A DNA stretch of 64,000 nt, taken from the IMG/VR virus record IMGVR_UViG_3300033463_000025, positions 64,001 through 128,000 of that record. One strand, 5' to 3'. Position 1 is the first letter of the stretch. Each line of letters begins with the position of its first letter. The position numbers and the translations under genes are program-made. A model generated the notes under the pieces. The model did not search any database and was not told the DNA's origin. It was given only the letters and a program-made list of their open reading frames with translations. Shown here one piece after another: positions 1 to 9,792 of this stretch. The stretch comes from a virus. Its lineage: Duplodnaviria > Caudoviricetes.

Positions 1-1044
1 AAACAAAGCGGCATCGGTTTCAACCTGTGACATACAGTAGATAGAAGTTGCAAGTTGATAAACCATTTCTTGACTATCTGTTTCACTTAGGAGCTGACGC
101 ACATAATACTTCGGGTTAGGATTAGCATTATAATCCCATATTGTTTGTACAGAATTGACAATCCAATCAACAGCCTTAATATCCTTATTGCTAAACTTTA
201 ACCTTTTAAGGACAGCCTTCGTCTTCTGTGGGTCTTTGAAATTAAAGAGAATAGCAAGTTTACTGTGAAGCATCAACTTATCTCTTGATATTCTTTTTAG
301 TCCCTCATTAATACGAAGGTAGCTATATCCTCCATCTTTAAATTCGGGAATAATCGGTTCTAAAACATATAACAACTCATCTTTCTTAGTGATAAACCCG
401 TTTAAAGTCTTGACAAGTTCATCGTGAATACGCTCCACAGCTATATTCTTTAATAAATCCCTCTTAGCACAAAGCGTTTCATATGTGCTTGGTTCAATCC
501 AAAAGTCAAGATTATTAGCAAAACGAACAGCTCTAATTATTCTAAGAGCGTCTTCCTCAAATCTCTCTTCGGGATTGCCGACACAACGGATTAGCTTTTT
601 CTTAATATCTCTTTTACCACCATAAGGGTCAACGAATCCATCAACAGGGCTATAAGCCATAGCATTAATAGTGAAGTCACGCCTTACTAAGTCAAGATTA
701 ATGTCATCAGTAAATACTACATCGTCTGGCTGACGGTTGTTAGAATATTTACCATCCATTCTATAAGTAGTAACCTCATACATAACGCCATCGAAAACCA
801 CGCCGATAGTACCAAAGTTTTCTCCGTGGCTGGTGACTTTATAATCGTCGCTAAATAACGCCTTAGTTTCTTCGGGCTTCATGCTGGTACAAATATCCCA
901 ATCGTGAGGCTTCATTTGTCTTAGTGTATCACGCACACAACCTCCGACCACATAAGCGGTATGCCCTGCTTCGTAAATCTTATTTATGATTGTTTCAACC
1001 GCTTCTGGCAGTTGAATATAAAACTTCTTTACATTCGCTTTCAT
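1..1044 (-). CDS. cca: CCA-adding tRNA nucleotidyltransferase / poly(A) polymerase family (3' part runs off window)
   Basis: Manual translation from ATG 1044: MKANVKKFYIQLPEAV...YVVGGCVRD...DWDICT...DLVRRDFTINAMA...FEEDALRIIRAVRF (class II NTase motifs). Not in the ORF track because it is truncated. Confidence 0.9.
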   Translation of the reverse strand, partial: MKANVKKFYIQLPEAVETIINKIYEAGHTAYVVGGCVRDTLRQMKPHDWDICTSMKPEETKALFSDDYKVTSHGENFGTIGVVFDGVMYEVTTYRMDGKYSNNRQPDDVVFTDDINLDLVRRDFTINAMAYSPVDGFVDPYGGKRDIKKKLIRCVGNPEERFEEDALRIIRAVRFANNLDFWIEPSTYETLCAKRDLLKNIAVERIHDELVKTLNGFITKKDELLYVLEPIIPEFKDGGYSYLRINEGLKRISRDKLMLHSKLAILFNFKDPQKTKAVLKRLKFSNKDIKAVDWIVNSVQTIWDYNANPNPKYYVRQLLSETDSQEMVYQLATSIYCMSQVETDAALF

Positions 1045-1045
1045 A

Positions 1046-1315
1046 TTATTCTAACACAAATCCTTCCTCATCAGTAATAGCCCAACGTACATTCTCATCT
1101 TCGTTATACTCTATGTATGCACCATACTTATCGTATTCGATTTTGCCACAGACTATAAACTTTGATGTGTCATAGTTCTGGGTAATAAACTTTTCATATA
1201 TTTCCAACAAAAAAGCCTTTCGTAACTCATTCTTCGCTTCGTCAATATCCTTACATTCAATCGTGCTATTATCTTCATCGCCTAAACAGTTTTCAAAACG
1301 CATTAAACAAATCAT
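1046..1315 (-). CDS. hypothetical protein
   Basis: 89-aa ORF with AAGGAG RBS, abutting cca. Confidence 0.7.
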   Translation of the reverse strand: MICLMRFENCLGDEDNSTIECKDIDEAKNELRKAFLLEIYEKFITQNYDTSKFIVCGKIEYDKYGAYIEYNEDENVRWAITDEEGFVLE

Positions 1316-1386
1316 TCTTTTCTTCTCCTTACAAATTCATAATATTCATTTATTCAAATCCACATCATAAATAACATTACATTAGC

Positions 1387-1518
1387 TTGACAACACCTCG
1401 ATTAACGTGTTAATATAATAAGCGAGATGGGGCTACCCATAGAGTAACCCTATTCACTTATAACTGTAATGTAGTTCTCTCCCGCCAAGTTGATTGCTAC
1501 ATTACAGTTATTCTTTTT
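1387..1518 (+). ncRNA. candidate small RNA with its own promoter and terminator-like hairpin
   Basis: TTGACA 1387-1392, TG-n-TAATAT 1408-1416, perfect 15-bp stem 1460-1474/1497-1511 followed by TCTTTTT; no ORF. Confidence 0.45.
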
Positions 1519-1587
1519 GTCTACACTAATTATTGTAACATCGAAATGTGGACTTGTCAACAGAAAATTAGAATATTTGTTCTAACT

Positions 1588-1800
1588 TTAGCCGACGAAC
1601 GTTCTACAATCTGTAATATTATCTTCAGCATCACAGATTGGTCTACAGTGTTTAGCGGAAACATATTTCCACTCGTTGCCAGTCATAATAAGAAATGTCG
1701 GATAGCCATTCTTGTTCTGCTTTACATCATAGACGGTTGTTTCAAAACAACGCTCAACCGATTCGCCCTTGTTCTTGTATGTATATAATACTCTAAACAT
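1588..1800 (-). CDS. hypothetical protein
   Basis: 70-aa ORF with GGAG RBS, in operon. Confidence 0.6.
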   Translation of the reverse strand: MFRVLYTYKNKGESVERCFETTVYDVKQNKNGYPTFLIMTGNEWKYVSAKHCRPICDAEDNITDCRTFVG

Positions 1801-1802
1801 AA

Positions 1803-2042
1803 TTAAATCTCTCCGTGATAAATATACTTTCCGTAAACTGTATCGTTTCCATATTTGTCAATGTGTCGTTCGTACTGCGTTTCAATATTATACCTGCGAC
1901 GCAGGTTAAAAATGATAGCACTTAACCTTGTGGCGGCGTACAACTCGATAGCTTCTAAACTTGTTATACTCCCATGTTCCTGTAGATGCTGAAGCACTTT
2001 TAGAGCCTTATTGGTCTTTCTGTGTTTTGATTGAGTTTTCAT
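1803..2042 (-). CDS. winged-helix/HTH domain protein
   Basis: VLQHLQEHGSITSLEAIELYAATRLSAIIFNLRR; start moved to ATG 2042 (GAGGT RBS). Confidence 0.65.
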   Translation of the reverse strand: MKTQSKHRKTNKALKVLQHLQEHGSITSLEAIELYAATRLSAIIFNLRRRYNIETQYERHIDKYGNDTVYGKYIYHGEI

Positions 2043-2095
2043 TAGTAACCTCTTGAAAATAAGTATAGTGTGTTTTATAGCGTTTGTCAATAGCC

Positions 2096-2892
2096 TTATT
2101 GACTTATGTTAAAATTTGGATTATTATTTACCCATTTATTGTAAACGAATAATTTTTCTGTTACCTTAAATTGATTATCTTTGTTTCTATCGAGAGTCCT
2201 TGTAAAAGGCTTCTCCCAAATAGCAACAAAGTCATCGGGAGCAACTTGTTCTGAAATAAACATCAAATGGTTTTGACTTACAGTTCGTGCATATTCCCAA
2301 AACGCTTGACTATCAAACACCATTTTGCCATAACCTGTAGTACCGTTGTAAGGTGGGTCTGCGTAAATAACACAGCCTTCTGGTAACTCTACATCACGAT
2401 AATCTCTACAAATGAATTGTGCATCCATAAGTGTAGCCATATCCTTGAGTAAAGATTTCTTGCTTTGTGCGGCATAGTTTGTACCGCCCTTATTACGAGC
2501 ATAACCGCCAAACCATTTACCGCCGAAGCTACAGCCGAATCCAACAAAGCCAGCTAACACCTTATCATCGTTTTTATTGGCTCGAATGTTTTTATAATCT
2601 TCTTCGGATATGTAATCAGGAAGCTCGTAACCGTTCTGAACACCCTGTAACATCGCTATCAGATATTCATGGTTATCGTTCAAAATCTTGTGTTTAAATG
2701 ATGTTAGTTTACTTTCAACAGAACAAGTGCCGCAAAACAAACTGACTAACTCACAGCAGTTTTGCCCCCCCCGTTAGGCGGGAAATAACACTCGCTATTG
2801 ACTTGGAAATTCTTGATTTCCCGCCTTGATAACGCATCTATTTCCTCCGCTATTCTTTTTGCTATACGACTTTTACCGCCTAAATACTGCAT
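2096..2892 (-). CDS. Dam-like (D12 class) DNA adenine methyltransferase, out of frame at a G8 tract (phase-variable, OFF state)
   Basis: Body has LFCG and ADPPY motifs; two YxGGKS N-termini (ATG 2892 and ATG 2837) lie in the other two frames upstream of C8 at 2765-2772. Confidence 0.85.
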
Positions 2893-3227
2893 TACGAAAC
2901 AACAAATTTTTGAATCGCGCTATACAGCTTTTCACTTTCAGAGCCACATACCAGTGTGTTATAATCAACCTCATGTGCGGTATGTTCACGGCTTCTATTC
3001 TTCAAAGCGTTAGCCGCTACGCCAAGCGATGACAGGAATGATTTAGCAGAAATAATCCACTCTTCCCCATTCTCATCAAAGCCCATCAGCTTAACCTTTT
3101 CAGGGATAGCGCAAACAGCCTCATTAAACTCCTTAAAGTCATCGTGGCAGGTAAGTTCAATCTTGTATTCGTAAGTAAACATTTTCATATGCTTGTCCAT
3201 AATTAACCTCATTTCTTTATTGTACAT
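2892..3227 (-). CDS. HPr-like protein (tentative)
   Basis: DFKEFNEAV...IISAKSFL resembles the HPr Ser46 region (xAKS); size fits; no evident His15 motif. Confidence 0.4.
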   Translation of the reverse strand: MYNKEMRLIMDKHMKMFTYEYKIELTCHDDFKEFNEAVCAIPEKVKLMGFDENGEEWIISAKSFLSSLGVAANALKNRSREHTAHEVDYNTLVCGSESEKLYSAIQKFVVS

Positions 3228-3579
3228 TTTCTATTTCTTGTGTATTATCTTCTTCTGTATCGACCCTAAGTATTCTTGCAATTACGAAAACCGTAATTAC
3301 GCAAATAAGTTCAATCGCCAAAAGAATAGATAGGATAATAAGAATAACATTTAGCCATTCAGGAATTGGTATATTCATATTACGAAGTACCGAACTAACG
3401 GTAATGAATATCAAATCAACAAATGGCAGTATAGTAAAAACTTTTGGTAGAATTTTATATAACACTACTTTGTGCCTCCAAACTGGTTTTATAATAAAGC
3501 CTTTTAGCTTTACTTTGAACAATATCCCAATACTTACAATTTGGGATTGAAGTGTTGAGTATTCTTTCAATTTCTTCAT
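3217..3579 (-). CDS. putative membrane protein (start uncertain)
   Basis: Two hydrophobic segments; 5' part overlaps the next ORF. Confidence 0.45.
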   Translation of the reverse strand: MKKLKEYSTLQSQIVSIGILFKVKLKGFIIKPVWRHKVVLYKILPKVFTILPFVDLIFITVSSVLRNMNIPIPEWLNVILIILSILLAIELICVITVFVIARILRVDTEEDNTQEIENVQ

Positions 3580-4354
3580 GCTCCATTAAAGTGTGTTTAA
3601 AAACAAAAGAATACCCTTTGCTTGAATAACATCTCGGATTGCTATGATTTAACTTGGTAATTTCTAATAAATCACCTCGTATATAAATGGTGATAGGATA
3701 ATGAACATTGAAAACACCATAATTCAAATCGTCGCCGTAACTTAATCCATCACCATATTTAGTAATCCATTTATTCTCAATAGCACCATTGACATTCTTG
3801 CTTGCTGTTGGCTCATTCCCATCCCACATATCATAAGTAAAGCCTAAAAACATCGGAAAAGGAATATCGGAATTATCTGTTATTTTCTTTTTTGGCTCAA
3901 ACTTCATTATGGGTTTCCAATCATCGTGAGTTTTCGGCTTTTCATATCGCCACTCAATCCCGTTATTAAAGATACGCAAATCAATATATTCAATGTCAGG
4001 TAAAGACAACAGCCAATCTCGATACTCTTTAGCCGTGTCAAAATTACCACCATGACGTTTAATCCAGCGAAGCAAAGTATTATCAATATCTTCAAGCTGT
4101 AATTGATATTCGGATTTTTGTTTTGCCGCTTCACGAGCCTCTTTTTCTAATTCAAACATTCTCTTAGCAAACAAAACAGCTTTATCATAATCATAGAATA
4201 CATTTGATTTCTTTATATGTGGGTAATCTAAACGACCATATTCGCTTTTAATACTAACCTCATCGCAATATTGGTATTCATACCTGATTTGCCCAGGTAT
4301 AACATCGTAATGCCCTTCGGGTGTTCTATCAACAAAATATATCGTATCGCTCAT
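3455..4354 (-). CDS. hypothetical protein
   Basis: 299-aa ORF, coupled start, GAGG RBS. Confidence 0.75.
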   Translation of the reverse strand: MSDTIYFVDRTPEGHYDVIPGQIRYEYQYCDEVSIKSEYGRLDYPHIKKSNVFYDYDKAVLFAKRMFELEKEAREAAKQKSEYQLQLEDIDNTLLRWIKRHGGNFDTAKEYRDWLLSLPDIEYIDLRIFNNGIEWRYEKPKTHDDWKPIMKFEPKKKITDNSDIPFPMFLGFTYDMWDGNEPTASKNVNGAIENKWITKYGDGLSYGDDLNYGVFNVHYPITIYIRGDLLEITKLNHSNPRCYSSKGYSFVFKHTLMEHEEIERILNTSIPNCKYWDIVQSKAKRLYYKTSLEAQSSVI

Positions 4355-4740
4355 TTACTTATTTCCTCAAGAAATGGTAAGCTATCCATATAACGGTTAT
4401 ACTCTTTTATTAGGTTTTCTAAACAGATAAAGCCTGTAACCTCTTTACCAAAGTTTTCACCATAGAATGGTGTATATGGCTGACAAAAATCCTCATCAAG
4501 AACAATGATGTTATCAAAATCATTCCAGTCCGAAAAATTTTCAGTAAAAGCTATATCAATATCGTAGTCAAACTTATACTTTTTACCTTCAATAATTGAC
4601 GTTATTTCAACATAATGCGTTTTGTAAAGAACACAGCCTTCTTTTATAATCCAAATTGCATTACCCTCTTTACAACCTGCTTTGATGAGGTCGTCTTTGG
4701 TAATGCCATCTTTGAGCTTATACCTTTTAATCTGTGCCAT
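4351..4740 (-). CDS. hypothetical protein
   Basis: 129-aa ORF, GGAGG RBS. Confidence 0.75.
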   Translation of the reverse strand: MAQIKRYKLKDGITKDDLIKAGCKEGNAIWIIKEGCVLYKTHYVEITSIIEGKKYKFDYDIDIAFTENFSDWNDFDNIIVLDEDFCQPYTPFYGENFGKEVTGFICLENLIKEYNRYMDSLPFLEEISK

Positions 4741-5014
4741 TTACTCGCCTCCCGTATTGAAAGTCAGACCAATCCAAAACTTGACCGCAATCTTGACAAC
4801 GCTTATCTCTTACGCGACTACTACTACCGTTGCCGCTTCGTACTCGTCTACCACAAGTTGGGCAACAGCATTGTGTATGACTGCCTAAAACTTTTCTCGG
4901 CGTGAGCATACCAATCACATTATTTAGTGCTATCGTAACATTTACAGGAGCATCGTTAAGCTGTACCATCACAGCCGCGTCTTTTAGGCTATCGAGCAGT
5001 TCAATACTATTCAT
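4727..5014 (-). CDS. zinc-ribbon protein
   Basis: CPTC...CQDCGQVLDWS. Confidence 0.7.
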   Translation of the reverse strand: MNSIELLDSLKDAAVMVQLNDAPVNVTIALNNVIGMLTPRKVLGSHTQCCCPTCGRRVRSGNGSSSRVRDKRCQDCGQVLDWSDFQYGRRVNGTD

Positions 5015-5199
5015 TTTTTATTTATCCCCATTTTATACTTATGGCATTTATATCTGCCATATCTTCTACGTTTCTTACCTTTTGCAATCCGAAACATCAT
5101 AATCGCCACAACGAGCTGAAGGAAATTTAATATACAAATTGTAAACGAATAATTACCTTTCAGCATTTCGTTCACAATGGTCTTAAAATATTCAATCAT
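5011..5199 (-). CDS. small membrane-anchored hypothetical protein
   Basis: One hydrophobic helix and a basic tail. Confidence 0.5.
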   Translation of the reverse strand: MIEYFKTIVNEMLKGNYSFTICILNFLQLVVAIMMFRIAKGKKRRRYGRYKCHKYKMGINKK

Positions 5200-5217
5200 A
5201 TGTATTTGTAATCCTTA

Positions 5218-5724
5218 TCATTTTATTTTTCTTTCAACAACAACTATGGTATCATTGTGCCAACCGCCGTGTGGGACGAGTAACACTTCTTCAATTTCAA
5301 ATCCGTATTTCTTTCCTATACCGCCAGAGTTCCAGCTACAAGTAATAACCTTGCCATTCGATTTTACTATTCGCCCTATCTGTTCTTTTTGTTTAGACCA
5401 GTAACTTGCCTGTGTGGTCTGCATATTCACGGTATAATTCAGTTGTTTATAACACTCGCTCACCTGCCGTGGTGAGAACGGCGGGTCATATAAAACCATA
5501 TCAACAGAGTCATCATCAAATAAAGCCAAAAAGTCTGTAGCGTCCAAATGATAATCTGTATTGTACTGTGTGTCTAAATCATTAGTAACAGTAGCGAGTT
5601 TATTCTTATTAGCAAAAGGGTCGATTATAATGCCCCCCCCGATATGCCGAGCTAACAGCTCTTTAATCGGTGGAACATCAAATGTGTTCTTGCTCGGCAT
5701 AGCCCATTTTCGGCTTATTTTCAT
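5218..5724 (-). CDS. small adenine-specific DNA methyltransferase with in-frame G8 tract (ON state)
   Basis: IIDPFAN and VLYDPPF motifs; C8 at 5633-5640 encodes GGG; ATG 5724 overlaps the metK stop. Confidence 0.85.
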   Translation of the reverse strand: MKISRKWAMPSKNTFDVPPIKELLARHIGGGIIIDPFANKNKLATVTNDLDTQYNTDYHLDATDFLALFDDDSVDMVLYDPPFSPRQVSECYKQLNYTVNMQTTQASYWSKQKEQIGRIVKSNGKVITCSWNSGGIGKKYGFEIEEVLLVPHGGWHNDTIVVVERKIK

Positions 5725-6509
5725 CGAATCAAACCCCATTCGGCAAACTTTTCAAAACCGCCGACGCTTTTAATATATGCACGAGCGACGTTTACAATTT
5801 GCTCATACGGAATACCGTCAATAGACTCATCACCAATAGCGCAACACATTTCGACTGGTTTACCTGTTTCTTGGGCTTTAAGATGAGCGTAAATGTTTAC
5901 ACTTACATCAGCCTTTGAAAAGTCCTTCCCCATTAAGCCGCCGCCTGTGACAGAATCACCCATATCAGAGCCGAGTTTACGATTTGTAGCACCTGTGTCA
6001 ACCTCTACGCCGCCCGTCCAATAACCAAGCGGATTGACGATTGCATCAGGATATAATTTTGCAATATCAAATTTTTCTGCAAAACTTTGACAAATAATCA
6101 GCTTGTCGCCGTTGAGAATATACTTGCCATCGCTACCATACTTGTCATATAAGCGATGTGCTATATCAGATAAAGCCTTCTGTTCTGCCGTTACAGGCAT
6201 ACCCCTAAAGATACCGTTATCGCCACAGCGGATTTTACCATGCTGATTCGCGGCAAGGTGAATATCTTGCGACACAAGACGGAAATCTGTGAGCAGTTTA
6301 TTCCCACCAATGCGATTAACAATATTGTCTGTCTCATCCCAAGTGATATTTACAGAGCTTTCAACTATGATATGGCAAATACCATGACCGATAAGCACTT
6401 CAACCGCAATCCGTGGATTCTCCGCTTTGGAATACGCTAAGTCAACTAATGCGCCAGCAATTCTATCGGCTATCTTATCAGGGTGTGACGGATTAACTTT
6501 CTCGAACAT
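5721..6509 (-). CDS. metK: S-adenosylmethionine synthetase, compact phage type
   Basis: EKVNPSHPDKIADRIA, GDNG, DTGATNRKL, GGGLMGKDFSKADVS match MetK signatures. Confidence 0.9.
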   Translation of the reverse strand: MFEKVNPSHPDKIADRIAGALVDLAYSKAENPRIAVEVLIGHGICHIIVESSVNITWDETDNIVNRIGGNKLLTDFRLVSQDIHLAANQHGKIRCGDNGIFRGMPVTAEQKALSDIAHRLYDKYGSDGKYILNGDKLIICQSFAEKFDIAKLYPDAIVNPLGYWTGGVEVDTGATNRKLGSDMGDSVTGGGLMGKDFSKADVSVNIYAHLKAQETGKPVEMCCAIGDESIDGIPYEQIVNVARAYIKSVGGFEKFAEWGLIR

Positions 6510-6684
6510 CTCTTACTTCCTCTCTTGTAATGATTGTATCTTCTTTTATTTCGCACATTTTTAATAAATCGTCTTGACAGGTACAAGCGCATGAAAGCGA
6601 ACAACCATAACACGGTTTATATGGTTTGCTGTTACATTTAATCATCAACTTTGCAAATTCTTCTTTTGTACAAATGATTTTCAC
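6493..6684 (-). CDS. small Cys-rich hypothetical protein
   Basis: GTG start with GAGG RBS; fills the gap in the operon. Confidence 0.55.
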   Translation of the reverse strand: MKIICTKEEFAKLMIKCNSKPYKPCYGCSLSCACTCQDDLLKMCEIKEDTIITREEVRDVRES

Positions 6685-7432
6685 GCAACATTCCTCGCTT
6701 TATTAATTCGTTCTTTAGCAATCTCATACATCTGTAAATCGTTTTCAATACCAATGAATCTTCTTTTGGTATTGATGCACGCCTCGCCAGTTGAGCCGCT
6801 ACCCATGCAGTTATCAAGGACAACATCATCCTCGTTGGTATATGTATTTATTAACCATTCTAAAAGTGCAACAGGCTTTTGCGTCGGGTGAAGTCTGCTA
6901 CCGTCCCTTGAATAGCTCAATATCGACAAAGGATTTCTCGCTCCGTCAAGCGACTCAGTATAAGCTACACCTCTATCGCCGTAGTTATCAGAAAGACTAC
7001 CGTTTTTAGTTTTCTTATATGGTGTTGAATACCATAGCTGTTTATTATATGTGGGTTTCTTTTTATAGAAGATTGCAATTTCCTCATGGGATTTCAAAGG
7101 TTTCACATTAGCATTAAGAAAATCAGAGCCACGTTGTTTATCCCATATAAGGTTATAACGCCACATCTTTTTATTTGATAACATAAGGTCTGCCATAAAC
7201 AAACCATCGCAAAACAAAGCTATACAACCGTTCTGTTTGATAATTCTGTTGTACTGTTCCCATAGCTTTTCAAATGGAATAACAGTGTCCCATTTATTTC
7301 TTGTCGTTCCGTATGGAAGGTCGCAACAAATCATATCAATACAACCGTCAGGGAGTTGGCTCATAACCGATAAACAATCTTGTCGCCAAAGGCTTACCCC
7401 CCCCGACTCAGAAGATTATTTATATCAAGCAT
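6681..7432 (-). CDS. beta-class N4/N6 DNA methyltransferase, N-terminus out of frame at a G8 tract (OFF state)
   Basis: DLPY, HPTQKP, VLDNCMGSGSTG; ATG 7432 with AAGGAG RBS reads MLDINNLLSRGG* through C8 at 7397-7404; +1 G fuses it to VSLWRQDCLSVMSQLPD. Confidence 0.85.
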
Positions 7433-7718
7433 ACTCTACTCCTTCGGGCGGCTCAGGCAATTCAGCCCAAAAACGCACATTAGTTATTTCATAAAATCCG
7501 TATTCGGAATCATAATCAAACCAACCGCTTTTACCATTCTTATCAGCAAAGTCATATTCATCTACATTAATTAGATTATTAGCGTATTTAGCTATTCTAA
7601 GAAAATAATATCCGCTAAGTGTATAAGACTTCGCAAAAATGAGGTAAGGTCTTCTATCTAACTTTGGAGGGTCTAACTGTGCATCGTGCCAAATTACTTT
7701 TGTAGCATTATCGTTCAT
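7425..7718 (-). CDS. DUF551-like hypothetical protein
   Basis: WH...PP start and VRFWAELPEPP C-terminus, a common phage pattern. Confidence 0.6.
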   Translation of the reverse strand: MNDNATKVIWHDAQLDPPKLDRRPYLIFAKSYTLSGYYFLRIAKYANNLINVDEYDFADKNGKSGWFDYDSEYGFYEITNVRFWAELPEPPEGVEYA

Positions 7719-7743
7719 ATCGTTTCCTTATATTTCTATTGAC

Positions 7744-9278
7744 TTATGTTATAGATTTTAATAAATGGGCTATGACTTCAACAGTCCAGCCGTTACCTAA
7801 ACATTTATATGCTTGTGAGTTGCTAATCACACTAAAGTCATACCATTCTGGTACTGTCTGCAACCGCATACATTCTCTTACTGTTAGTTTACGAATTATG
7901 TAAAAGCCATCAGACAACTTAATCGGATATGTTTTTCCTTTAATTGTTATCTGTCCATTGACAACTTCGTAAACCGTATATACTTTACCATCGGCAAAGC
8001 TCTTAGCTTTTATAGGTATATCATCTTGCCATTCACACGGTTCAGCATAATGTAACGGATTTTGTGTATTAATCGTTACAGCATACAGCCCTGTCTTACC
8101 ACCAAGACCACCACCATTAGCAGACAACGTAACAGATTTGCCATCTTGCGAATATACCCTCATCGCTTGAGAATTATTTGTTTCTCCATTCGATGACGGC
8201 ATACATCCTACCTGTTCAGCTACCATGCTTTTACAGCCTTTTTCTATAGTATGGCTCACATAGTTCCCTATGTTTTCTCCGCTACCGTTTTTATATCCTG
8301 CTGTTAAGCAATAAGATTTATCGTTCTTAGTCATTCCCACTGGCTCTGCAACACCACTCGCGCCATATGTTGAAGTGTATTTACAGATGTTTGCAATACT
8401 CGTTTGTTGATATTGTGCCTTAATAGTTTGTGACTTTCCTTCACCAGTCGTATTCACTGGTTCAATCGTTCGGGCAACAACGTCGCTCGTTGGATTAGAT
8501 GCTAAACAATATGCTTTATCTTTTACACCAACTCTACGATTGCTTAAATCACCAACCATTGAAAACGCTTTAGGTAACGCAACAGGCTCAACCGCCATAT
8601 TTCGTTGATGCCGCTCTATGGTGTTCCACGCAACCGCACCGCCATAAGCTGTGGTTAGCGTCCAGCCTTTTTCGTTGCTCGTCAAATCATCGGCGTTATT
8701 TTCGAGAATATCTCTTAGTAATATTCCTCTATCCTCTGGCTGTTCTATATCCGCCTTTTGATATGTACCATCTTCTTGACGAATACCAACCCAATACAAC
8801 CGCTGACGGTTTTGAGCTGAAACAAGTGCAGAATTTATACAAATCGGCTCAAATCCAAATGTGTCAGAAATGCTGTCATAAATAGCTCTTGACATTGATT
8901 TGTTGTTTTCGTAAAGAAAGTATTTCGGTTTTGCTTCTTTAATAGCTCTTACAAACTGGCTAAACAATTCCCAGCCCATACCGCTTGCTTCTGTTTCGCG
9001 GTTGTTCTTTTGAGCGATGCTCCAAAAAGTACAGGGCGAACCTCCGATAAGATAATCAATACCGTCAAACTGCGTATAGTCTGCATCAAATACATCACCA
9101 CACTGGATGATACTCGGAAAGTTATGCTGGCTAACTTGAATAGCATACTTATCTATCTCATAAGCATAATAGTCTTTGACTTCTATACCAAGTCTTTTGA
9201 ACGCCAACATACCACAAGACATTCCATCAAATAAACTAAGAACAGATACCCCATCTTGTGATGAAATATCTCTTTCAT
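7744..9278 (-). CDS. C5 cytosine DNA methyltransferase (start unresolved)
   Basis: VLSLFDG (motif I, upstream of track start 9222), GGSPC, YENN, QNRQR, GNGW; long variable region. Confidence 0.9.
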
Positions 9279-9477
9279 TACAATAATGTTAGTTACGATT
9301 GGCTTATAATCTGACTTTCTATAAATCGCACACAACTATCAATAATTGTAAGAAGAAAATAACTAACGGAATTATGGGGTGTTTAGTAATATGAATCAGG
9401 ATAAAAGAGATATTTCCTTATACTCGTTTATCCTACAATTACAATTATAACACTATTTATAACATAAGTCAATAGTT

Positions 9478-9792
9478 TTATAAATATTTGTTATTCTGTT
9501 CCATATCTCTTGTTATAAAACGAAAAGTAGGTACAATCCTTAGCTTTTCAGATATTTGAGCTAACTCTAAGCAAGTGAAATCGTATTTACCGCTACACCA
9601 TAGCGTTAGCTTACTTTTGCTGATATTAAAAAATTTACAAACCTGCTTTTTACTTATGCCACACTCATAAAATGATTTTAAATAATCAGTTATATAATCT
9701 GCAACTTGCATTTTCAACTTATCAGCAGTTCTTTCTGGGTGGACATATTCACCTAATAAATCTCTATTTCGGTAATAATCATTAAACAGCAT
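9478..9792 (-). CDS. XRE-like HTH protein
   Basis: GISKKQVCKFFNISKSKLTLWCSG. Confidence 0.6.
   Translation of the reverse strand: MLFNDYYRNRDLLGEYVHPERTADKLKMQVADYITDYLKSFYECGISKKQVCKFFNISKSKLTLWCSGKYDFTCLELAQISEKLRIVPTFRFITRDMEQNNKYL

Follow-up and report, generated by a model that had tools for sequence, protein, structure and literature searches.

The window, which is the whole 64,000-nucleotide stretch of phage DNA analysed here, corresponds to positions 64001-128000 of an IMG/VR virus record that is 143,758 bases long and has direct terminal repeats, and originates from bovine gut metagenomes (rumen phage). Its minus strand carries the gene of a predicted Dam-like DNA adenine methyltransferase, at whose 5' end two N-terminal modules, each with a start of its own, precede a run of eight G and the catalytic body (Table 1).

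Table 1. Features of the methyltransferase locus, in coordinates of the window
Feature	Position	Strand	Remarks
N-terminal module, copy 1	2838..2892	-	Start 1, ATG 2892-2890; YxGGKS and helix; 18 codons + 1 nt
Ribosome-binding site GGAGG of start 2	2844..2848	-	Inside the copy 1 coding sequence; 6 nt before ATG 2837
N-terminal module, copy 2	2773..2837	-	Start 2, ATG 2837-2835; YxGGKS again, in the other frame
G8 homopolymer, frame selector	2765..2772	-	Exactly 8 G, between the N-terminal modules and the body
Catalytic body, predicted D12-class (Dam-like) N6-adenine DNA methyltransferase	2096..2764	-	SLFCG motif I, DPPY motif IV; stop 2098-2096
Stop codons of both short ORFs when the tract is G8	2746..2753	-	TGA 2753-2751 (start 2), TAG 2748-2746 (start 1)
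TAA in the body frame	2774..2776	-	Just 5' of the tract; shuts the third frame

The preliminary description of this DNA had read a YxGGKS N-terminus at each of the two ATGs in different frames, a GGAGG belonging to start 2 alone, and a Dam body in the third frame with a TAA directly before the tract. Reading, ORF listing and translation confirm the two N-termini, the GGAGG is present where it was expected, and the body is supported both by its match to Pfam PF02086 and by its DPPY motif. The single nucleotide left over after the 18 codons of copy 1 sets the two starts 55 nt apart, which is 1 mod 3. The ATG of start 1 shares bases with the stop of an upstream 111-aa ORF (TAATG) and is without a Shine-Dalgarno site, and in the window start 1 is dependent on coupling to that ORF. 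The DNA of copy 2, when read in the frame of start 1, forms a stop-free linker of about 22 codons. Because the TAA closes the third frame, no third start is possible.

The frame arithmetic that had been proposed for the tract likewise holds in translation. Tract lengths of 1 mod 3 (7, 10) fuse start 2 to the body and give a short form, a length of 0 mod 3 (9) fuses start 1 to the body and gives a long form, and a length of 2 mod 3 (8, as sequenced) leaves both starts out of the body frame, so that the gene is OFF. In this G8 state the ORF from start 1 has 48 aa and ends at 2746 (by ORF listing and translation), and that from start 2 has 28 aa and ends at 2751. Removal of one G joins start 2 and body in a product of 246 aa; translation in the G9 frame (read as G6) joins start 1 and body in one of 264 aa. 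The expected masses of the short and long forms are about 28.5 and 30.5 kDa. A promoter and terminator scan of positions 1700-4500 remained at background level and was uninformative on the switch.

The body scored 50.7 bits against Pfam PF02086 (D12 class N6-adenine methyltransferases; cut-off 22), this domain is present in all homologues listed, and DPPY and SLFCG are invariant in the homologue alignments. The family profile matched T4 Dam (1yf3) with an E value of 2.9e-6, with motif I aligned to FVDLFCGG of T4 Dam. Structural comparison by VIA-align of a model of one relative's natural long form (L016) gave Z scores of 15.5 (2g1p), 14.9 (1yf3) and 12.9 (2dpm) over about 200 residues, the alignments starting where model residue 3 corresponds to residue 10 of E. 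coli Dam and residue 7 of T4 Dam, and a Foldseek search with the model of the window's own long form returned Dam enzymes first (E 3.6e-8 to 1e-5). The profile, motifs I and IV, the N-terminal Y/W-x-G-G/N-K motif (found twice) and the Dam fold thus all place the protein in the D12 class, and the gene is predicted to encode an orphan Dam-like DNA adenine methyltransferase of the phage. T4 Dam, E. coli Dam and DpnM (1yf3, 2g1p, 2dpm) share with the phage enzyme the Pfam family, the fold and the motif order Y/W-x-G-G/N-K, FxGxG-like, DPPY, at about 20% identity, but have a single N-terminus and no repeat.

Counting of homopolymers revealed that the Dam tract has counterparts in the window. On the plus strand of the 64 kb, runs of 5 C occur five times and runs of exactly 8 C three times, with nothing at the lengths 6 and 7; matches of G7 or longer number 6 against 0.69 expected, a count reached in none of 100 shuffles, and the G8 tracts of the window are more than chance would provide. 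Each of the three G8 runs, the other two being at 5633-5640 and 7397-7404, lies in the 5' end of a DNA methyltransferase gene encoded on the minus strand. That of the Dam gene is OFF, that of a small amino-methyltransferase-like gene (5218-5739) is in frame, and that of a gene for a PF01555 N6/N4 enzyme separates an upstream ATG at 7431 from the rest of its frame. A SAM-synthetase-like gene and a C5 methylase gene without an in-frame start are also found nearby. These neighbours would fit a methylation cassette that can be switched. The two ORFs flanking the Dam gene that were scanned contained no recognised nuclease family, one being the 111-aa ORF upstream, which has no Pfam match, and the other encoding a winged-helix protein; the ORF list of positions 1-9500 contained no res or hsd genes.

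Whether both N-termini are retained in homologues had been proposed as a check, and the outcome was strongly positive. Among GenBank phages, blastn with positions 2000-3300 returned as sole match 74 nt in a Bacillus phage Dam gene and no close cultured relative, and viral contigs searched with the short-form protein alone gave no matches; an alignment-based scan was needed to find relatives. A homologue search with the short form found 2273 sequences, with 63-77% identity among the best 120 of the 2273. Their aligned N-termini fall into two forms. The short one is collinear with the start 2 product. The long one matches the start 1 product over its first 18 residues and then has an extra 20-30 residues that correspond to copy 2 of the window as translated out of its own frame, and the residues just before SLFCG in the homologues are glycines or alternating Arg-Glu, i.e., polyG or (AG)n in the DNA. 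When 80 viral contigs and 46 loci of bacterial (Clostridia) genomes, about 125 in all, were fetched and scanned in all frames, both N-terminal modules were present in 84 loci, representing 73 distinct sequences. Cultured carriers are Ruminococcus sp. YE282, which is short-ON, and Acutalibacter caecimuris M00118 and Flintibacter muris DSM 110149, both long-ON; further carriers include many MAGs of Oscillospiraceae and other Clostridia from rumen, gut and caecum.

The arrangement of the starts is maintained in these relatives. For the first 59 scored, start-to-start spacing was 55 nt (30 relatives), 58 (15), 85 (5), 67 (3) or 88 (1), values that differ by multiples of 3 and are each 1 mod 3; the few exceptions, at 74-80 nt, all come from one clade in which another G tract separates the modules. 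At the tract site the relatives have G6-G13 or (AG)n. A Shine-Dalgarno-like site precedes start 1 in 63 of 74 relatives and start 2 in 57 of the 74, and both starts look usable. Start 1 is ATG in 44 of these relatives, GTG in 13, ATT in 12, TTG in 4 and ATA in 1, while start 2 is ATG in 72, and this codon usage hints that the two forms would be translated unequally.

Conservation of the two modules was evaluated over the 73 distinct sequences. Pairwise differences at the first, second and third codon positions number 13250/6559/24809 for copy 1 and 12043/7594/23609 for copy 2, each in its own frame, and eight residues, Y3, G5, G6, K7, S8, R9, I10 and I14, never vary in either copy; on this pattern of substitution both modules are judged to be under purifying selection. 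Recent duplication or gene conversion of the modules was considered and is excluded by the 56% DNA identity of copy 1 and copy 2 inside one locus, and, because the copies share just this fraction of their bases, the duplication is an old one that has been maintained. Between start 2 and the repeat, stops occur in the start-1 frame in 2 of 63 loci, in the start-2 frame in none, and in the third frame in all 63. With the start-1 frame thus open and the third shut, the DNA of copy 2 is likely dual-coding by selection. The dual-start design as a whole appears to be selected for, and the earlier proposal, in which the gene is ON in two of its three length classes of the tract and any single slip from OFF restores an enzyme, is correct as a description of the design, judging by the relatives.

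These same observations bear on the idea that copy 1 is a recombination scar and the gene a decaying pseudogene, the scar being the first codons of a previous methylase gene that remained after insertion of a new one equipped with a ribosome-binding site. Phage genomes are mosaic, the flanks of identical Dam genes differ widely, and a low identity of 56% between the copies would fit such an origin. A scar, however, would not keep eight invariant residues together with third-position variation, nor would it hold its frame relation through five spacing classes or preserve an open overlapping frame, and copy 1 persists in 73 distinct sequences of a family whose proteins diverge by up to about 40%; a scar is therefore an extremely improbable explanation.

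Tract states were taken from assembled sequences; long homopolymers can be miscalled in metagenome assemblies. The 71 distinct dual loci with a full body comprise 28 short-ON, 16 long-ON, 4 that are both and 23 OFF, so that 68% are ON, which is near the two thirds that free movement among the three frames would give. Of 13 single-start relatives, 11 are ON. On a tree of the bodies (a quick tree with modest supports) the three states are mixed among identical or near-identical tips, and the repeat type has been swapped between G and AG several times. Three sets of loci have identical flanks and differing tracts (L008/L010/L011 and L041; L048/L051 and L061; L064/L065 and L089), the differences being G7 short-ON versus G8 OFF, (AG)14 short-ON versus (AG)12 long-ON and, in the third set, G8+G10 OFF versus G8+G9. 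Over 2726 aligned bases L064 and L089 are separated by one substitution and three indels, every indel being in a G/C homopolymer and one of them in the Dam tract. An invariant tract in reads and relatives was among the observations that, according to the preliminary description, would speak against switching; in the relatives, lengths differ on near-identical DNA. In a few relatives the tract is interrupted and apparently fixed, either short-ON (L007, L009) or long-ON (L044).

For the phage of the window itself, G8 was present, with no differences, in two runs of the source sample (as Logan contigs, which drop minority variants). The same length was read from a contig of 311 nt that belongs to another sample and another study, and from a JGI contig of 88.8 kb with identical sequence. 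Exact look-ups found no record of the short-ON (G7) product of this phage, nor of its long-form product as read in the G6 frame (which is not the G9 sequence itself), and the remaining member of the protein cluster is a 214-aa call from the identical G8 contig. Because all assemblies have G8 and the short-ON product is without a record, this particular lineage may be stably OFF, or its gene may be decaying.

A homopolymer assembly error, concealing a real phage with G7, G9 or G10 and an intact gene, could also produce an OFF reading, homopolymers being error-prone and the record being a metagenome assembly of which consensus contigs were examined. It is nevertheless quite unlikely, as the same G8 recurs in the two source-sample runs, the contig of the second sample and study and the separate JGI contig, OFF is also the state of 23 of the 71 distinct relatives, and the two other tracts of the window are likewise exactly G8, one of them in frame. 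An error, even if real, would leave the conserved dual-start design untouched.

Enzyme might alternatively be made from every genotype, by ribosomal frameshifting or transcriptional slippage, with the tract tuning its level and no change in the DNA. Polymerase slippage is possible on runs of 8 or more identical bases, the tract has that length, and in the frame of start 1 it forms a G GGG GGC heptamer. No stimulatory structure was found in the 95 nt 3' of the tract, however, where the minimum free energy is -13.4 kcal/mol (z +1.02 versus shuffles); programmed frameshifting was rejected as the main mechanism on the ground that this segment folds no better than shuffled sequence. In addition, the (AG)n relatives have an equivalent repeat that is not a frameshift heptamer, and tract length itself differs between identical backgrounds, all of which makes production from every genotype very unlikely.

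The long form inserts about 20-25 residues between motif X and motif I. In the AlphaFold2 model of the natural long form L016 (mean pLDDT 76), computed with 19 other long forms, the body is well folded, helix 8-23 has a pLDDT of about 88 and residues 26-47 fall below 50. The model of the window's own long form is similar in having a confident helix 8-22, a linker (26-44) below 50 and a well-folded body. Both models are consistent with the copy-1 helix occupying the canonical N-terminal position of Dam and the out-of-frame copy 2 being looped out. A model that AlphaFold builds from aligned long forms is, however, no proof of their activity. Catalytic activity of the long form is plausible, judging from conservation, the one interrupted-tract variant and structure prediction.

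A simpler account would have the short form from start 2 as the sole enzyme and the start-1 ORF as a leader or coupling ORF or a small peptide, the tract then being an ordinary ON/OFF/OFF switch. It can draw on the linker, which puts motif I twice as far from motif X, on the weakness of the start 1 codon in 30 of the 74 relatives against ATG at start 2 in nearly all of them (72 of 74), and on the missing Shine-Dalgarno site at start 1 of the window. Yet copy 1 keeps the Dam N-terminal residues exactly as copy 2 does, with variation at third positions, and this conservation makes sense only for a methylase N-terminus. Further observations speak against a leader as well: the start-1 frame is open through copy 2 in 61 of the 63 loci as compared with none for the third frame, changes in spacing between the starts are always multiples of 3, long-ON was assembled in 16 of the 71 distinct loci, including the one with an interrupted, fixed tract, and in the models the helix of copy 1 takes the place that it has in Dam. 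A leader role for the start-1 ORF is accordingly held to be unlikely.

The preferred reading is that of a three-state, two-isoform repeat switch, which is probably the design of the family, as suggested by the sequence comparisons and structural models. The locus would be a three-state contingency switch that works by a simple sequence repeat and controls an orphan Dam-like methyltransferase of the phage, in which an essential N-terminal module (YxGGKS and the next helix, before the SAM-binding SLFCG strand) is present in tandem, each copy with its own start, and the G8 between copy 2 and the body would decide which frame runs on into the body. At lengths of 1 mod 3 the canonical short enzyme would be made from start 2; at 0 mod 3 a long enzyme would be made from start 1, with copy 2 serving as a floppy linker of about 20-25 residues; and at 2 mod 3 no full-length enzyme would result. 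Slipped-strand mispairing during phage or prophage replication would change the tract length and hence the state, which would cycle with tract growth through short-ON (7, 10), OFF (8, 11) and long-ON (9, 12). Any one-base slip out of OFF would yield an enzyme, and two thirds of genomes would be ON at equilibrium, the copy in the window having been caught in OFF.

The pay-off of such a switch would be progeny of mixed adenine methylation, as a bet-hedge against host restriction in which the mark would block the restriction enzymes of some hosts and trigger the methyl-directed nucleases of others; in the prophage or lysogen, epigenetic variation of the host is a further possible benefit. In this model we infer how fast the gene switches, that the long form is active, and what benefit the switch brings. 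More tentatively, the two ON forms could be non-equivalent in the level or a property of methylation, so that the tract exerts a three-level control and, together with three further switches, yields up to about two dozen heritable methylation types, an extension that is possible but doubtful. The three further switches in that extended reading are the two other G8-gated methyltransferases and a candidate flip-switch on the C5 methylase. If true, a single phage population would carry a combinatorial epigenetic bet-hedge against both restriction and methyl-directed restriction in unpredictable hosts.

Since the design is conserved across phage and prophage Dam genes of gut and rumen Clostridia, phage methylation is probably a stochastic, heritable variable, with bearing on phage host range, restriction escape and methylation-based host assignment in metagenomes. 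Gene calling would be affected as well, because such genes are routinely annotated as truncated or frameshifted. The overlap of copy 2 with the linker frame furnishes a clean natural case of apparently selected dual-coding DNA, and the cultured carriers make the design directly testable.

Among known systems, phasevarions are bacterial repeat-switched methyltransferases, of Type III (mod) or Type I (hsdM/hsdS) (PMC5909438, PMC7383803, PMC2667262). They and the phage Dam gene both have a simple repeat in a methyltransferase frame, with a change in methylation that is stochastic, heritable and reversible, as predicted from sequence for the phage. Phasevarions control a regulon and are two-state, chromosomal components of restriction-modification systems in host-adapted pathogens, whereas the phage gene encodes a predicted orphan, Type II-like D12 enzyme of gut Clostridia phages and prophages, with three states and two predicted isoforms; by its enzyme class, its scanned neighbours and the ORF list of positions 1-9500, it is not a member of a Type I or Type III restriction-modification system. 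Phase-variable methyltransferases have been known as regulators and defences of bacteria, and here the attacker would use the same logic, in a more elaborate manner. In phages of Campylobacter, polyG tracts reportedly sit within genes for receptor-binding and other structural proteins, which they turn ON or OFF. Such hypermutable contingency tracts create phenotypic diversity in Campylobacter phage populations (Sorensen et al. 2021, cited in PMC12823448), and that citation mentions neither a methyltransferase among the targets nor the duplication of an N-terminus. In full-text literature of incomplete coverage, no description was found of a phage Dam whose N-terminus is doubled in two frames.

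The closest precedent for the frame logic is licA of H. influenzae, in which a (CAAT)n repeat is combined with alpha/beta and gamma initiation codons, so that two classes of repeat number are ON and the third is OFF (PMC2212159); a multi-start repeat switch is likewise cited as established for lic2A of H. influenzae (Dixon et al. 2007, cited in PMC6625227). In licA as in the phage Dam gene a 5' coding repeat selects the in-frame start, and starts lie in two of the three frames, an arrangement that, with the third frame closed, is found also in 63 distinct relatives of the phage gene. The two differ in the repeat (polyG or (AG)n in the phage gene, a tetranucleotide in licA) and in the gene affected (a phage DNA methyltransferase rather than a bacterial LPS enzyme). 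They differ also in what is doubled, for in licA the segment before the repeat is dispensable and the start codons alone are doubled, whereas in the phage Dam gene a functional module (motif X and helix) is duplicated and one copy is dual-coding, serving also as a linker for the other. The principle is thus known from licA; what is new is that the doubling affects a functional enzyme module and gives each frame a copy of its own, with one copy acting also as linker, that the carrier gene is an orphan Dam of Clostridia phages and prophages, and that the design is family-wide.

Among relatives of the Dam gene, a D12-class methylase whose two frame-offset N-terminal modules (copy 1 and copy 2) precede a G8 tract, two loci (L064 and L089) differ, over 2726 nt aligned, by a single substitution and, besides the Dam tract itself, by the unequal lengths of two flanking C8-C10 runs, being otherwise identical; there are thus several hypermutable tracts in one phage region. 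In three other loci (L007, L009 and L044) a G-to-A change breaks up the tract, and each of the two N-terminal modules is still intact. L007 and L009 look like alleles fixed with the second start joined to the methylase body (short-ON), and L044 looks like an allele fixed with the first start so joined (long-ON).

Comparison of 5.7-kb loci showed that the Dam genes of three pairs (L008/L041, L048/L061 and L002/L017) are identical or nearly so, with flanks that are hundreds of substitutions and many indels apart. The switch-bearing gene is therefore a mosaic module that moves between phage backgrounds.

One clade of Dam loci carries an extra polyG tract separating copy 1 from copy 2. Its members are L024, L026, L027, L029, L034, L036, L086, L091, L093, L100, L105 and L107, and L028, L030, L064, L065, L089 and L092 were also assigned to it. 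Because this tract lies between the two copies, the start-to-start spacing is itself variable in the clade, and additional states arise, for example one in which both N-terminal modules stand in tandem in one frame, as one protein.

Two further G8 tracts are found in the window. The amino-methyltransferase-like gene is in frame at G8 and is thus ON. In the N6/N4 methylase gene, the reading frame from ATG 7431 meets a stop immediately past the tract at G8, and one additional G would link it to a typical N-terminus; an internal start, ATG 7364, gives a truncated product of 227 aa.

Features in the window accompanying the Dam gene
Feature	Position	Strand	Details
Small winged-helix gene	1803-2042	minus	PF14090
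Promoter-like site, near-consensus	2062-2090	minus	TTGACA, 17 nt, TATACT; 11/12
Amino-methyltransferase-like gene, 173 aa	5218-5739	minus	weak PF10237 match, DPPF motif
G8 tract, second in window	5633-5640	minus	near codon 34 of gene 5218-5739
S-adenosylmethionine-synthetase-like gene, short, 262 aa	5721-6509	minus	PF00438, 40.5 bits
N6/N4 DNA methylase gene	6681-7431	minus	PF01555
G8 tract, third in window	7397-7404	minus	between ATG 7431 and methylase body
C5 cytosine methylase	7744-9222	minus	upstream region 9222-9292

The frame of the C5 methylase is open upstream as far as a TAA near 9292, and this open stretch contains no start codon ahead of motif I; ATG 9276 and ATG 9253 are in another frame, beside a G4 run. 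The promoter-like site is immediately 3' of the Dam stop and 5' of the winged-helix gene. Located among the methyltransferase genes, the S-adenosylmethionine-synthetase-like gene, its match restricted to the N-terminal domain, would be a methyl-donor source for the methyltransferase cassette.
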